DNA of 63,418 nt, counting the filler, from Atractiella rhizophila (taxonomy: Eukaryota): NCBI GenBank assembly GCA_021432655.1. It is 6 parts of 6 records of this genome, joined end to end, with 100 filler letters (N's around TTAATTAATTAA, not from the genome) between each part and the next. Parts side by side here need not be neighbours in the genome. Positions count along the whole stretch, not along the records: positions 58,073 to 63,418 come from MU272008.1; 5 more parts are not named here. One strand, written 5' to 3'. Under the pieces are notes generated by a model that made no database searches, was not told the DNA's origin, and saw only the letters and a program-made list of their open reading frames with translations. Made by a program: the position numbers and the translations under genes. Of the stretch, positions 13,250-63,418 are shown piece by piece. Every line of letters starts with the position of its first letter. Position 1 is the first letter of the stretch.

Positions 13250-13349
13250 NNNNNNNNNNNNNNNNNNNNNNNNNNNNNNNNNNNNNNNNNNNNTTAATTA
13301 ATTAANNNNNNNNNNNNNNNNNNNNNNNNNNNNNNNNNNNNNNNNNNNN
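13250..13349. other. Artificial contig-join spacer
   Basis: N44-TTAATTAATTAA-N44, stops in all six frames. Confidence 0.98.
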
Positions 13350-26511: not shown

Positions 26512-26611
26512 NNNNNNNNNNNNNNNNNNNNNNNNNNNNNNNNNNNNNNNNNNNNTTAATTAATTAANNNNNNNNNNNNNNNNNNNNNNNNNNNNNNNNN
26601 NNNNNNNNNNN
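26512..26611. other. Artificial contig-join spacer
   Basis: N44-TTAATTAATTAA-N44. Confidence 0.98.
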
Positions 26612-39766: not shown

Positions 39767-39866
39767 NNNNNNNNNNNNNNNNNNNNNNNNNNNNNNNNNN
39801 NNNNNNNNNNTTAATTAATTAANNNNNNNNNNNNNNNNNNNNNNNNNNNNNNNNNNNNNNNNNNNN
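39767..39866. other. Artificial contig-join spacer
   Basis: N44-TTAATTAATTAA-N44. Confidence 0.98.
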
Positions 39867-47344: not shown

Positions 47345-48721
47345 GGCAGCGGTGACGAAGAAAAGCAAAGTTTACATCGAAGAGCCTTTATATTTCCGAT
47401 TCACGGCGAAACTGGTGTAGCAAGCTTTAGAATTCCTTTAGAAGCCCGAATCAAGATTATAGTCAAAACTGGACCTGACAAGAATGCGGTGATCGAACGA
47501 CCCACCTTTTGACCACCGAGCAAGAAACATATTGCCAGAGTTCTAATCCCTCAGGAACGCGGACTGGGAGGGGGAATCAGCTTTTTTTCCTGCCTGCACT
47601 GCCATTAGTATTCTCGCGTGAACAACCGCAGGCATTGGATTCTTGGAATCGAGTGCGATGATCAATAGGTGTATCAAGGATGGAGAGATGACCCACATTC
47701 ACTCGGTCATAAACGAAGGACTCGAGGCTCTTGATGCTGTTGAAGTCGCACGCACTCTCCTGGTCCACTGGACATGTTGCTGCCTTGTGAGTGAGTAATA
47801 TTTACGTCGTGGTAGCCGAGCTAGCTCTTTGTAATTATCTTTTCCTATCTCTCACTCTCACCTACAAACTACCTGGGCAAGAGGGGCTCCTCCCCCCAAT
47901 GTTCATTGAGAATCGATTATGTTTCTTGATTCCACATGCTGGCTATTAGAGTCGCATGAGCAACGAGTTCAGAAGCTATTCAGAAGTTGGAGGTCTCTTA
48001 TTTTGTAGGAAGGTGACATCGTGAAGGTGCACTGCGACCATCTCCTGCCCTGTATCATTTCGTTGTTCGTTTGGTACGGTGCAGGTCACCAAGTCCCAAC
48101 CTAAAAGTTCCAATTCCTATCAATGCCTCCTAACTTGCCACATTTTCCATACTTACCTGTTCTCTAGGAAATACTTACCTGACAAGATAAAGTTATAGAG
48201 GTCGATGATTTCGACCTTAACCTTGACCAAATAGGAAGAGCAGAATGCCAGAACAAAGAACGGAGCTGGACGGAGTCCTCGTTCTCTAAGAATGATCAAG
48301 ATTCGCTGTCTTGCTACCACATTCGTTTTAGGAAGCGAAGGCATGGAGACGAAGTTTGATATGAAATCGCGACTTCGCGAAATGTGCGGTCTGTTGAAAG
48401 TGGGCACGCCTCGGGTACTCTCCGCTGGACAGAACAACCACACCCAAATTGATGCCCGCGAAGATGTGGGAACGATGACAATTCAAAACAACGCCAAATG
48501 GAGAGTCTCCACGCACCATTAAGAATAAAATAATAATAATAATATATTCTAACTAATTTTATGCTTGAATACTTGGCCCAAAGTCGCTACCGCACCCCCG
48601 CTTGGGTCCTTAAGTGGTGACCAGAAGAAACTGCAGTGAGCTTTATAATCACAATCTCTCCTGCCCCGATGTCTTTGGATGTCTCTTCTCCGTTGCTGCT
48701 GATTTCGTGCTGTTGAGCAAG

Positions 48722-53014: not shown

Positions 53015-53114
53015 NNNNNNNNNNNNNNNNNNNNNNNNNNNNNNNNNNNNNNNNNNNNTTAATTAATTAANNNNNNNNNNNNNNNNNNNNNNNNNNNNNN
53101 NNNNNNNNNNNNNN
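53015..53114. other. Artificial contig-join spacer
   Basis: N44-TTAATTAATTAA-N44. Confidence 0.98.
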
Positions 53115-57972: not shown

Positions 57973-58072
57973 NNNNNNNNNNNNNNNNNNNNNNNNNNNN
58001 NNNNNNNNNNNNNNNNTTAATTAATTAANNNNNNNNNNNNNNNNNNNNNNNNNNNNNNNNNNNNNNNNNNNN
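57973..58072. other. Artificial contig-join spacer
   Basis: N44-TTAATTAATTAA-N44. Confidence 0.98.
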
Positions 58073-58886
58073 GAACAGTTATGCGAGTGTCCCTGCGAAT
58101 CCCAAGGTAAAGCTCAAACCATTTGATGGCGTCTGGTCTGAGGATGACCTCGCCAACAAACCTCCATGGTCATTTCTAGAAGCCACAGGATGTTTGAACT
58201 GGCTATCAATCTGCACACGTCCGGACATCACCTTCGCTCTCTCCAACGTACAGCGTTTCGCAGCCAACCCAGGCCCAGAACACTACAAAGCAGTCAAGCA
58301 AATTTTCCGCTACCTCAGCGCAACCTCAAACAAAGGACTGCTGTTTAATGGGAACGATCGCAGACCCCTTCATGCGTACGCTGACGCCTCCTTTGCCTCC
58401 CTTCTTCCATCCCTCAAATCTCAAGAAGGACGGCTCATCATGCTCAGCGGAGCACCCATCACTTTCAAATTGAAGCCTCAAACCGTCGTGGCACTGTCTT
58501 CCGGAGAGGCAGAATATAGTGCAGCTACGAAAGCAACTGCAGATCTGCTGTGGACAAGAGGTCTTTTTGAAGAATTAGGAGCACTTGAAAGCGTTCACAA
58601 TGTCTCGCCAGGAGAAGACATACCCCCCACGACAGTCTTCGAAGACAATCAAGCGGCGATCAAGATCTCAACCAACGGAGTCCACCATGCACAAAGCAAG
58701 CCATTTCTGCTTCGCTACCGCATGGTTAGAGACAATGTCCAGAAAGGCAATATCATTCTACGGTATGTGCCAACGCAACATCAGATTGCAGACGCTCTCA
58801 CAAAACCACTTGCCAAGGACTCCTTTCACCAATGCATCCACGCTATTGGAGTACGCGATATTGGAACTCGCATCATTTTCTCTTAA
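58073..58886 (+). mobile_element. Ty1/copia pol C-terminus (RT end and RNase H)
   Basis: TRPDITFA, YADAS, VALSSGEAEY, EDNQAAI, QIADALTKPL. Confidence 0.93.
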
Positions 58887-59082
58887 TTGACACTCTGTTC
58901 TTTTCATCCGTGTGCGCTCTCACTTCTTCGTTCAGTCTTCACAATAGTTGTGTAACAGAGCATTTCTTTTTTCTTCATATTCACATCCATTTGAACACAG
59001 ACACCTTTACATCACAACCCATCCCACATTCCTATTCTCCATTGCAACTTCTCCCAATTTCTTGTAGCGTACGGAGTGGGAG

Positions 59083-59246
59083 TGTTGAAGCTTGGTTGTT
59101 TTTCTCTCTTCGTTTTTTGGTTTCCCGTTCATCTTACGCATTCCGCGTCTGACTGTTCCGTCCGCTACTGTAGTTTAGTCTCGTTCGCATTACCTGAGGT
59201 TCATCTTTTCCTCTTCCTGTCTTTCTGATGAACCTCAGGTTCAACA
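59083..59246 (+). mobile_element. 3' LTR of the copia element (164 bp)
   Basis: Purine-rich tract GGAGTGGGAG immediately before TGTTGAA...TTCAACA. Confidence 0.82.
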
Positions 59247-60026
59247 AATTAAACCATCTTACTGCATATGCTTGCGCCTTTCTAAAGCTGCGAGGAAATT
59301 TTATTCTGAAGGGGGTAAAAAATGCGTTTCAACTGGCCTCACAAGAGTCACAGTAGGGTTCAAGGGGCCATGCCCCTTGCGAGTGGGTTGGGGGGCCTGA
59401 GGGACGAAGGACAGTTGACACACTTGTGAACCCTAGAAAGTCACAGTTCAATGAAGTTGGAATTCAAAGAGGCTCGTGCCGCCTGCTGGGGAAGACTGGT
59501 TCGTTGTGACCAATATCTTACAAACACTCATTCTTTTCGGTTTTCTTCAGCTCCAGTAGAGTCACCAATTTTAATTTCCTCTTCCCATTGCCAGTGCAGT
59601 TACTACATTCAGGAATGAGAGAAATCGTATGCGTAGCTTTTGACCCTCCCAGGTAGACATTTCGTAGTTCGATGTTCGGGATGAAGAACACCGCAGATGT
59701 GGCTCGGTTGAAGCTGGAAGACCTGACAGACTAGTGAATTACATAGTGAGTCAAGACTCTAGCCAAGCAAAGAGGCAGAGTCGCGGAATCAAGGACAGAA
59801 GTTACGGTCCCTCTTGGATCGCAGCTTTGATCCCGTTGACTCGGATAGATCAAGAGAACAACAATTCTCAGTCATTCCGGAGAGAGCTAATAGGAAGCAA
59901 ACTCGAAAGAGCAAGTGAGAGGCAACAATGCAGTCGCATTGGACAATCCCACGTAGTCAGTTGTAGTGTGTTATTAACCGTGTAGTCTTATAAACATTTC
60001 GNNNNNNNNNNNNNNNNNNNNNNNNN

Positions 60027-62370
60027 TTGTATGCCTAAGAGAAACTCTATTCCGCTACTCAATCGCTCCTTATGCCTCGTCCTTTGTACGCGTGGTTAGA
60101 GGACAGGATACCTGTCGTTCGGTTCTTTCTACTTGCGTCGTTACCGTTGACGGACACCGCTGCCTCACGGTTACTAATTGTTCGCTTCTTTTCTTTCGAC
60201 TTCACTGTCTGTCCTTAACACTGGGTAGGGTTACAGCCGACATCGACGGTGCCGTTGCGCTTGTCTATTTGGGTTTGGAAGCTGAGACACTCGAAGTACT
60301 TTCATACTGCAGCTTTGAGTGTCACACAGAACTCCACTTAGACCATCGGTTTGCCTTAACCACAACATTCCTAGGAGAGCTCTCTTTGAGCCCAGAGCAA
60401 GTCGCATCCTCTTATCAACTCCACCCATGTATGGATTTCTTGACCTGTTCCGGAACTTAGGGGTCATCTTCACGCAAACATCAACCCTGTAGCTACTAAA
60501 AGGAAATGCGGTAATTTTTACACGACGTTCTGGATTTGTCGTGGCTGGAAGCAACTTCCCTTCTGCACATGGGTGAGTAGTCGTACTACTCAAGGTTACC
60601 ATCTAAAAGGATTGGGAGTAGAGTCACCGTTTCAAGAGGACTACTTTAGCGCATGCAAGAGCTCACGTCCGGCAAAGGAGGGGAAGGCGTACAATAACGA
60701 GAAGGACGCAAGGTCGAGGAAAGAGGATCGAGCAAAGCTTTGCATAAAGTTGTAGCTGGATGAATATAGCAGTAACAGTCGAGTCCCCTACAACCTGTCG
60801 TATGGACTACCCTTACTCTTTGCACTTATTCAGTAGCTACTATAAGGTACCACCGCCCATAAAGCTCTACCGAAGTCACCTTATCCTCCTACCCCCTAAG
60901 GTCTCACGACTTCGCCACGACTCTCACAAAGGTAGGAGTGTTCTACCCTTAACCCGAAATGTTGACAGTTTTGTTTAATCAAGGAGTGTTAACCGGTGTA
61001 TTTCCACATGTTCTGACTAAGTTACGCCTAAACGACAGACGTTTTGACTGCGAGCGCGAGCACGAGGGTTCGCAGGGGTAGTCTCAACTGCCAGAGGAGA
61101 CTGACCACAATCTGTCTAGCGATCCTGCTCTCCCGCTCAGCGAGAGACTTAATAGGAGCACCCCAAGACAGCTATTGTAAAGGCACAGCCTTTACTATCG
61201 TCTTCCCTCTACTATGACCAATCCTCCATTACTCATGTCTTTGACCCTCGCTTAGCTCTGCGTTTGGAAACCGTCCATGCGTTGGTTGCCGGTTTCTAGA
61301 ACCATTTTTTTGTGGCAGGATACGGTCTAAAGTCGTTTCTGCCGCGACTGCCGCCTTTGGTAAGTGAAGTGGTGACTTGGCTCCAGTCGAAGTCTAGTCA
61401 AAAGCGGTGCTCTTTTACGTATGGCTTCTATTACAAAGTGTGAATACCGCTTCCGAAGTTACTACAACTAGTATCGAAGCCTCGTGCAATAATAGAGTGT
61501 GTATTCGTTCGGTTTATTTATTGAGTGAAAAGAAAAGGTCGCAACGGAACTGAAAGAGGAGGAGGCCCTACAAACGTCCTGATGGTTAGTTAGTCATAGT
61601 AAGATGCGTAACTCTACTCTGTTCTCGTATGAGGAGTCCTTGGAAGTATATCGAACCATGTGATAGTGTTTCCAGTCGAAATCTAAGCTTTCCTCACGTA
61701 CTATTTTATGACATCGGTATAGTAGGAACGGTCACAAGCACTTAACTCCTAATAAAGACTGGTGTAGGAAGCCGGAAGGGTTATAGCCAGCATACGCGAT
61801 AGCGTTTAAATAGTGTTGTCGGCTCGACTCCTTCTCTTTAGTGTGGAGCTCCACGCTATTCTTTACTGTTTAGGTTAGCAACAGGGGTCCTGCCAAGATA
61901 CGACATATAGTTATAGCGCTAGTGTCATAAAGTACTGCGTGTCGTACCACGAACTATAAGGATTCAACTGTGACCTCAGGTCGGACAGTTACTCCTGTTT
62001 ATCGTCAACGTTCTGGTCACTTCTTCTCCTGCCTCTCGGTCTATGAGGAGTTTCGTCTGATAGTGTTACTATTGTAACTCACTCCCCTACTCCTGCCTTT
62101 CCCTCGTATGCCGTCACTTTAAATCGGTCTACCTAACTACAAACTTCCCTAGTACTCGATTTTCCCCATTACTTGGAGTTTGCACGCAACCCTTTTGTTC
62201 TCGTTTTTTCGTTTTGGCTACCCGAGTATTAGGTGGACCTATAGTGGTTTGAACCAGTACTCAACTCATGCTCGGGACAACAAAGATCGGGAGTCAGGAG
62301 GTGTGAACTTAGCTCGCTTTACAAATATTCTGATGTGCCAATTATTGTGTGATGTTTGACTGATGCACCC
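60027..62370. other. Segment written in reverse order without complementation
   Basis: 62316-62370 read backwards equals 59948-60001 (1 indel); preceded by 25 N; backwards text has canonical exons and introns. Confidence 0.93.
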
Positions 62371-62765
62371 CTCATACTGCCATGTCACCATCGTTCACAG
62401 TTATCACAGCTTCGGATACGACCTGAACGACTTGAATTTAGGCAAGTCAGGCTTTCAGTTTCCTCCGTGAACTAACGCCATGACAGATTATTTCTGCCGG
62501 AACATCATCCACCGGTTCGTTGTTTACCTTCTCATACTCGGTTCAATGCTAATGTGACGGCGACAGAGAAATGGCTGAATTGACTTCCCATACGCCAGAA
62601 TCATCAGATCCTGATTCCTTCCTCTTCACAACCGGAAATGTGCCGCTTTTCCCTCACGACCCAAGAGGTGTAGAAGAGTTGTCGCAAGTTTCAATGTCAG
62701 AGCTAGAAAGGCTTCTGGCTGGTGGGCGAGCGGGACTGAATAGGACCAAGACTTACCGTGAATAA
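60027..62765 (+). CDS. Bestrophin/UPF0187 (YneE-like) anion channel; 5' exons lie in the reversed segment
   Basis: Backwards: ATG at 62259, VLGTTIGFVISYRTS, AYDRYWEGRRMW, LERILTTPIPFGYQIHL, IGQEIENP; forward from 62410: FGYDLNDLNLDYFCRNIIHREMAEL to TAA 62765. Confidence 0.88.
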
Positions 62766-62988
62766 TACATTCACGAAAGGTCTCTACGAAGGAAGATGGT
62801 CAGTAGTTACTCAGTAGACAGTGGTGCTAGTTAGGGGTTTAATCATTATTGCGATAAAGTGTATCGTGATTATAAGGAGGGTAGAACGAAAGGAAACATG
62901 CAAAGTACTGAAGCCTCACTCCTTGCCATTGTCTACAATGTGAAGAAAAACTTGGGAACTTGAGCACGATTACATCAACAACACCATT

Positions 62989-63375
62989 CGACAAAAAAAA
63001 TGTCCTTTGACCTAGAACGAACACAAGTATAATGGAATGAGAAGCTTGAAAATGTAGAGAAGGATTGATTAGGGTAAGTGAAACAAAACTAGACACTAAT
63101 ACCCTGTAAAACTATCAAGGCAAGTAATAGAGCACAGACAAACTTTTTTCTGCTTTTTTTGTCACATAAAAAGAAGAACAGGAACAAAGAAGTCCATCCC
63201 CCTGGAACGAACACAAATGAAATTAATTCGGAGGCATGGATATGCAGAGGGGAATTAAGTACGATGAATCAATGACACGATACCAGGTGCTAATACCTTG
63301 TAATCCACCAATGAATACAATAGCACCGACAAATTTTTTTTGCCTTTTGTGATAAATGAAGAAGAACAGGATTAA
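62989..63375. repeat. Degenerate ~190-bp tandem duplication
   Basis: CCT(A/G)GAACGAACACAA at 63011 and 63201; GACAAA-Tn...GAAGAACAGGA at ~63137 and ~63328. Confidence 0.55.
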
Positions 63376-63418
63376 AGCAGGCTTTTAGCGAGCAGGGAAG
63401 GTTTCCTGTGTGAGAACT

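Follow-up and report, generated by a model that had tools for sequence, protein, structure and literature searches.

The locus examined here raises the question of how 2.3 kb of text in a public genome assembly of the fungus Atractiella rhizophila (GCA_021432655.1) came to be written backwards without being complemented, and what that text encodes when it is read in its true direction. The window, the whole stretch of 63,418 nt that was analysed, consists of six pieces joined by N44-TTAATTAATTAA-N44 linkers. Only one run of 25 N is present within it, the assembly gap at 60002-60026, and the reversed, non-complemented block (60027-62370; 2,344 nt; assigned, like the gap, to neither strand) begins exactly at that run, inside one piece and not at a linker. 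The text of the block is the reverse without the complement, which is identical to the opposite strand complemented without being reversed, and its true direction runs from 62370 to 60027. A first-pass annotation had described the region as 2.3 kb of mirror-reversed DNA, and this description was borne out by the mirror overlap at the gap, the placement of a known A. rhizophila protein, outside contigs, and composition.

The 54 nt that end the left flank (59948-60001, forward strand), directly before the gap, recur as a mirror copy at the far end of the block (62316-62370; 55 nt; no strand assigned), and this copy marks the true overlap of the block with that flank. When reversed, 62316-62370 equals 59948-60001 except for one additional T in a run of T; the mirror image claimed for these coordinates was thus confirmed, with the correction that its two sides differ in length (54 versus 55 nt). 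The exact part of the overlap spans 41 nt (59961-60001 against 62356 to 62316). With low-complexity words excluded, 24 mirror 18-mer pairs were counted in the whole window, all 24 at this pair of sites, while the same count gave 0 complement-only, 1,432 direct, and 353 reverse-complement pairs. By our own arithmetic, the chance expectation of an exact mirror match of 41 nt in 63 kb is about 1e-15. The 25-N run at 60002-60026 is no true gap, because the reversed block bridges to the left flank.

The composition of the block was compared in both directions with a 5-mer Markov model fitted to the remainder of the window, by subtracting the reversed from the forward log-likelihood in 400-nt segments. 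All nine segments lying wholly inside the block were negative (mean -10.4), indicating that the reversed reading fits better, and the 293 segments outside the block had a mean of +7.6, with 6.1% below 0. The only other clearly negative segment was found at 47801-48200 (-6.4), where no gap or oddity was seen, and it is taken as noise.

Evidence from four public runs (X1-X4) comes from their contigs. A contig of X3 carries 173 loose letters just before 62410, the last 30 of which equal the mirrored text from 60117 to 60095 (23/23 nt) followed by that from 60040 to 60034 (7/7 nt), so that this contig joins the first of these segments to the second, and then to 62410. In a contig of X4, the last 30 loose letters match the mirrored text from 60063 to 60034 at 29 of 30 nt, and in both contigs the loose ends begin exactly before 62410. 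Against either deposited strand, the longest exact stretch of the same loose letters is 9-13 nt. Downstream, X3 and X4 (one contig each) share a joint from 62439 to 62485 with a skip of 45, movable by 2, and the shift gives GC..AG ends; both also skip 52 nt with GT..AG ends at 62515-62566, so that both downstream introns are removed in these contigs, although the search for public runs listed none of RNA. The spliced contigs of these two runs and the 5-mer model are the checks that agree with the reversal independently of any protein comparison. Elsewhere, 59731-60001 is covered by an X2 contig of 310 letters, which shows no differing letters and a single gap there and extends 40 letters past 60001. 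The bins from 60058 to 62193 are uncovered in all four runs, with the flanks covered in X1 and X2; this pattern is not evidence either way.

The content of the block was established by comparison with P0002, a 527-aa protein named by NCBI "UPF0187-domain-containing protein [Atractiella rhizophila]". In tblastn searches, residues 1-439 of P0002 match the reversed text only, in eight pieces from 62259 to 60096, whereas the deposited text, both strands included, matches only residues 443-527, in two pieces within 62411-62762. The bestrophin/UPF0187 match expected after in-silico reversal was therefore found, by tblastn as well as by spliced alignment, and the prediction that no six-frame ORF caller could see the gene held true of the deposited text. 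The peptides quoted in the first-pass annotation (MTKFGDIQVDYEPI, TVLGTTIGFVISYRTS, AYDRYWEGRRMW, LERILTTPIPFGYQIHL, and IGQEI) all occur in forward frames of the reversed text.

Spliced alignment of the reversed block and the right flank to P0002 by dynamic programming begins with an ATG, runs up to a TAA, and resolves 22 exons and 21 introns of 44-59 nt, 20 of them GT-AG and one GC-AG, with all 21 splice-site pairs intact. Exons 1-19 of this Bestrophin_2 gene (60034-62259, read backwards; 1,334 exon nt) begin with the start codon at 62259 to 62257 and enclose 18 internal introns, each 44-59 nt long and each with GT-AG ends in the backward reading. Exon 19 consists of 7 nt (60040 to 60034); IGQEI, which had been noted as joined to ENP, is present, and ENP lies on this separate small exon. 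The intron that follows crosses the boundary of the block, opening with GTATGTT inside it (60033 to 60027) and finishing in normal orientation on the forward strand (62371-62409; AG at 62408-62409), for a total of 46 nt, exactly as had been proposed. The remainder of the gene lies on the forward strand. Exon 20 (62410-62441; 32 nt; P-FGYDLNDLNL), in normal orientation, is followed by the GC-AG intron (62442-62486; 45 nt), which was placed by the spliced alignment and by the X3 and X4 contigs. Exon 21 (62487-62514; 28 nt) was defined by the alignment and the run contigs, and a GT-AG intron (62515-62566; 52 nt) by the alignment and X3 and X4. Exon 22 (62567-62765) closes with the stop codon TAA at 62763-62765, and its 65-aa translation (P0001) shares 98% identity with the C-terminus of P0002. 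The earlier account of a GC-AG intron leading to this stop codon was right in both elements and had passed over the GT-AG intron between them.

At 501 of 507 aligned codons the window copy is identical to P0002; the differences comprise six substitutions, two inserted codons, and five frameshifts. The gene described in the reversed text is present, with the correction that the reversed text contains frameshifts: after reversal, an open frame from ATG to TAA requires five one-base corrections, all inside the block. The block exons carry four insertions and one deletion, each of a single base, and the right-flank exons (256 nt) contain no indel. Three of the five frameshifts fall in or beside a run of at least three identical bases. 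The five indels are probably read errors of the kind met in uncorrected long-read sequence.

P0002 stood in for the window product in the comparisons with Pfam and the PDB. It is a member of PF25539 (Bestrophin_2), which it matches over two stretches with 215.8 bits (cut-off 27; E 1.2e-63), and it scored 16.7 bits, below the cut-off of 24.2, for PF01062, the canonical animal-type Bestrophin family. By these profile scores P0002 is assigned to the bacterial and fungal branch and not to the animal one. Matches to solved structures were obtained for 4wd7 and 4wd8 (E about 2e-20), 7pl9 (E 1.5e-23), and 7ek1 (E 2e-8). The first two entries represent KpBest, the bestrophin homologue of Klebsiella pneumoniae (E 1.7e-20), and 7pl9 represents the bestrophin part of a rhodopsin-bestrophin fusion; each was matched over two stretches, and the three entries hold five chains each. 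By comparison with KpBest or the bestrophin part of 7pl9, the fungal protein has about 230 additional residues, and its matched stretches are set apart by an intervening part that appears by eye to be rich in Ser and Pro. Bestrophin homologues are pentameric channels, with which the five chains per entry agree, and the protein is, by family, a predicted pentameric ion channel. Judged from its sequence, the locus holds a normal nuclear basidiomycete gene for a predicted membrane protein of about 527 aa of the Bestrophin_2/UPF0187 type. The window gene and P0002 agree in length and in C-terminus; the gene for P0002 lies on another contig (44,307 nt). The window copy is unreadable as deposited. 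With P0002 placed on that other contig, the window locus may therefore hold an allele or a duplicate of its gene.

The piece that carries the block starts with an open frame of 270 aa (58074-58886, forward strand), in which no Pfam family was found at E<=0.001; it appears to resemble the C-terminal region of a Ty1/copia-type polyprotein. Farther along, 59168-59523 is high-copy, with a summed word depth of 9,000-48,000, compared with a few hundred in the adjacent sequence. Neither Rfam at gathering thresholds nor ARAGORN gave a match anywhere in the window, and the high-copy stretch is therefore no recognisable tRNA or rRNA.

The block is almost certainly gap-fill sequence that was placed by software after half a reverse complement, with the true order of the gene reversed. 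It adjoins a gap, overlaps the opposite flank once its text is reversed, is read in reversed form by contigs from outside the record (X3 and X4), and matches the genome in composition in that form alone, all of which are marks of an artefact. The earlier suggestion of a gap-filling error, and not of biology, is thus supported by the outside contigs, the 5-mer test, the adjacency to the gap, and the long-read-like indels. A long-read extension most likely grew leftwards from the right flank at 62371, and the software would then have reversed it without complementing it, or complemented the opposite strand without reversing it, with identical text resulting. In its true orientation, the block starts 54 nt inside the left flank and reaches 62371, and therefore closes the gap, with a true distance from 60001 to 62371 of about 2,289 nt. 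In the backward text, the 54-nt overlap would have been unrecognisable, and a 25-N spacer would have been left.

The gap closer PBJelly is a plausible source of the block. PBJelly sets one-sided extensions beside a short run of N, and the circumstantial case for the attribution draws on that placement, on the default gap size of the program, on what its authors call "overfilled" gaps, and on the long-read-like indels. The default minimum gap is given as 25 in PMC6240028, and the PBJelly paper (English et al. 2012, PLoS One 7:e47768; PMC3504050) defines overfilled gaps as those in which a contig is extended by long reads into the gap and the overlap with the other side goes unrecognised; more sequence is then placed than the gap should hold. 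The block would share this pattern, and here too a short N spacer remains. The passages on these gaps are silent on reversed, non-complemented extensions; here, a 54-nt overlap does exist, and is visible only after reversal. The full-text literature, in a scope that excluded most subscription journals and issue trackers, held no paper on non-complemented reversal by a gap filler.

That the reversal is a software fault of another origin, introduced by a different gap closer, a finishing script, or later handling of the record, is rather unlikely. In its favour, the window has visibly been handled after assembly, its six pieces being chained by linkers, and no report of such a PBJelly fault was found in the literature covered. 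Against this, the block starts at the 25-N run within a piece and not at a linker, the run has the length of the PBJelly default minimum gap (PMC6240028), the overfilled gaps described in PMC3504050 are likewise one-sided extensions without a recognised overlap, and the block carries long-read-like indels. The reading of the gene is unchanged under either origin. It is improbable, on a separate point, that the locus is a decayed second copy, a pseudogene or degenerate allele in which the reversal would still be an artefact and the frameshifts would be real mutations. The differences from P0002 (frameshifts at five places, six substitutions, and two inserted codons), the location of P0002 on another, 44-kb contig, and the shortness of the window piece, which starts in repeat sequence, would suit such a copy. 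However, every frameshift is confined to the gap-fill block, with the 256 exon nt of the flank free of them, three of the five are located within or next to a homopolymer of at least three bases, every one of the 21 splice sites is intact, and codon identity stands at 501 of 507.

A natural "mirror" rearrangement, in which the deposited order would be real, has in its favour the text of the public record itself and nothing else, and is next to impossible. The strands of DNA are antiparallel, and an inversion therefore always yields the reverse complement and cannot give the bare reverse; we know of no polymerase or recombinase that joins DNA 3'-to-3' and so reverses a duplex without complementing it. 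The contigs of two other runs, moreover, read the mirrored text up to 62410, the 5-mer content fits the genome only if reversed, and the block adjoins an assembly gap. A natural rearrangement was rejected on the grounds of strand chemistry, these contigs, the 5-mer content, and the border with the gap.

The finding is a data fault, and new biology is absent from it. We give somewhat less than an even chance to the proposal that the fault is systematic and undescribed, with a gap closer writing its one-sided long-read extensions after half a reverse complement. If that were so, many short-N gaps in this assembly, and perhaps in others from the same pipeline, would have kilobases of backwards text behind them; genes in that text would escape annotation, and databases would take in spurious sequence and ORFs from it. 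A scan for such blocks, combining the k-mer likelihood of the forward and reversed readings with a search for mirror overlap at gap edges, would be cheap, and could be used as a quality screen for assemblies that were gap-filled with long reads. As it stands, a public fungal assembly contains at least one block, of 2.3 kb, that is unreadable to an aligner, an ORF caller, or a gene finder, and the locus is therefore without a correct bestrophin-type gene model. The gene itself is ordinary and is already annotated elsewhere as P0002, and the finding serves as a warning about the quality of assembly data.

The last bases before a 25-N gap, 59948-60001, were found to be the bare reverse, rather than the reverse complement, of 62316-62370. 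The two copies differ in length by one extra T within a T run (54 versus 55 nt) and include 41 nt of exact match, for which the chance expectation in 63 kb is about 1e-15 by our own arithmetic. A scan of the whole window for 18-mers with a bare reverse elsewhere returned 24 pairs, all at this one pair of sites, and complement-only pairs numbered 0, compared with 1,432 direct and 353 reverse-complement pairs. The mirror-reversed stretch is real; the first-pass annotation had located it correctly, and its overlap is now defined as 54 versus 55 nt.

The last exon is deposited in normal orientation, and its translation (62568-62765; P0001) was used to search a public protein collection for longer proteins. 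P0002, a 527-aa protein with 98% identity to P0001 over the whole query, was the sole pass among 79 candidates, and is named 'UPF0187-domain-containing protein [Atractiella rhizophila]' at NCBI. Tblastn placed residues 1-439 of P0002 on the reversed text only, as 8 pieces in descending order between 62259 and 60096, while on both deposited strands just residues 443-527 matched, at 62411-62762. P0002 was then aligned by spliced protein-to-DNA dynamic programming, permitting frameshifts and introns in all three phases, to the left flank, followed by the block (60027-62370) read backwards and the right flank. The gene so recovered has 22 exons and 21 introns of 44-59 nt (20 GT-AG and one GC-AG), and is identical to P0002 at 501 of 507 aligned codons. 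It starts with an ATG at 62259 in the backwards reading, and its aligned coding sequence ends at 62762 in normal orientation, followed by TAA at 62763-62765. Exons 1-19 (1,334 nt) lie within the block and are read backwards, and exons 20-22 (62410-62441, 62487-62514, and 62567-62762) are in normal orientation. The 46-nt boundary intron begins with GTATGTT at 60033->60027 (descending coordinates denote the deposited text read backwards) and is completed by 62371-62409. Two exons are of 7 nt: 60040->60034 (AGAATCC, part of 'ENP') was confirmed by a spliced contig of the public run X3, and for 61373->61367 the sole basis is the alignment to P0002. The GC-AG intron (62442-62486, 45 nt) is spliced out in one contig each of the runs X3 and X4.

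These results bear out a bestrophin/UPF0187 gene in the reversed text, as had been claimed, with all of the quoted peptides present in the translation of reversed 60027-62370 and an intron running from GTATGTT to 62409 across the boundary. Several details were refined. The 'ENP' coding is present in the backwards reading and involves a 7-nt exon; the GC-AG intron and TAA hold, with a further GT-AG intron (62515-62566) before the stop; and the gene is indeed recovered as a spliced gene, with frameshifts in the block.

Evidence independent of P0002 came from four public runs (X1-X4) holding parts of 58100-63418, compared as contigs. The organism labels of X3 and X4 differ from those of X1 and X2, and X3 differs from the window by 3 letters in 159 nt. 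Contigs of X3 and X4 have introns 62442-62486 and 62515-62566 removed and carry loose ends that stop immediately before 62410. In X3, the final 30 letters of the loose end are mirrored 60117->60095 (23 nt, all identical) and then the 7-nt exon 60040->60034; in X4, the final 30 match mirrored 60063->60034 at 29 of 30 nt. On the deposited strands, by comparison, the longest exact stretch of these letters is 9-13 nt. Related fungi therefore have, 5' of 62410, the sequence that the block gives when read backwards. A strand-symmetric 5-mer Markov model, trained on the window with each 400-nt test window left out, gave a forward-minus-reversed score averaging +7.6 (sd 4.8) outside the block (n=293 windows, including those straddling its right edge; 6.1% below 0). 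All nine windows wholly inside the block were negative (mean -10.4, highest -4.45), and no other runs of negative windows occurred in the whole window; a lone outlier, 47801-48200, showed nothing odd on reading.

The window consists of six separate pieces (13,249, 13,162, 13,155, 13,148, 4,858, and at least 5,346 nt), joined by 100-nt linkers (N44-TTAATTAATTAA-N44) that carry stops in all six frames (13250-13349, 26512-26611, 39767-39866, 53015-53114, and 57973-58072). It is a concatenation of small scaffolds, and neighbours across a linker are therefore not genomic neighbours. The last piece (58073-63418) contains the block as well as the sole 25-N run of the window (60002-60026). This piece begins inside an open frame of 270 aa (58074-58886), which we take to resemble the C-terminal end of a polyprotein of the copia type; a Pfam search of the frame found no family. 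Summed word depth at 59168-59523 reached 9,000-48,000 in X1 and X2, compared with a few hundred alongside (30-70x), so the left flank is repeat sequence, probably a dispersed repeat such as an LTR, and its repetitiveness is the likely reason for a short-read assembly break there. Rfam and ARAGORN returned no matches over the whole window. The AT-rich stretch downstream of the bestrophin gene contains an imperfect 36-nt direct repeat (78%; 63157-63192 and 63345-63380, 188 nt apart).

A natural inversion yields the reverse complement, since the two strands are antiparallel, and we know of no way for replication or recombination to make a bare reverse. The deposited block reads as the true + strand reversed or, equally, as the true - strand complemented, and so corresponds to half a reverse-complement operation. 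In the record, it adjoins the right flank at 62371, but the end that belongs there now sits at 60027. The other true end, on the left, shares 54 nt with the left flank, suggesting that the gap had actually been closed by an extension of the right flank, and that this extension was written backwards. The 25-N spacer would have been kept because the overlap is invisible in backwards text. Relative to P0002, the block exons (1,334 nt) carry four one-base insertions and one deletion, several at base runs, and the 256 exon nt outside the block carry no one-base indels; together with the one-T difference in the overlap, the indels point to errors of the kind made by long reads that were left uncorrected. 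PBJelly, which leaves 25 N at overfilled gaps, is a plausible candidate for the tool involved. Passages of two papers describe its 'overfilled' gaps as extensions that show no recognizable overlap and together are longer than the gap predicted (PMC3504050), and its default minimum gap as 25 (PMC6240028). Full-text literature searches found no description of such a reversal fault. The earlier reading of an artefact, not biology, is supported by the X3 and X4 loose ends, the 5-mer composition, the position of the block at an assembly gap, and its long-read-like one-base indels.

P0002 matches Pfam family PF25539 (Bestrophin_2, 'Bacterial/Fungal Bestrophin protein') at 215.8 bits (cut-off 27), and scores 16.7 bits against the animal-type PF01062, under the cut-off of 24.2. 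Among solved structures, it matches the bacterial bestrophin homologues 4wd7 and 4wd8, each with five chains in its entry, at E ~2e-20, and 7pl9, over its bestrophin part, at E 1.5e-23. The bestrophin match is split into two stretches, and the intervening part reads as Ser/Pro-rich. By family, the product of the hidden gene is predicted to be a pentameric ion channel. Both deposited strands of the backwards block contain chance open frames, the longest being 143 aa (+ strand) and 123 aa (- strand), and one such stretch is at 59978-60460 (+). These frames could become spurious 'hypothetical proteins' in annotation. The bestrophin-type gene itself is unremarkable, and an annotation of it already exists on another contig. 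The feature is a data artefact over a known kind of gene; its value is as a warning about data quality, together with an easy screen for blocks of this type.
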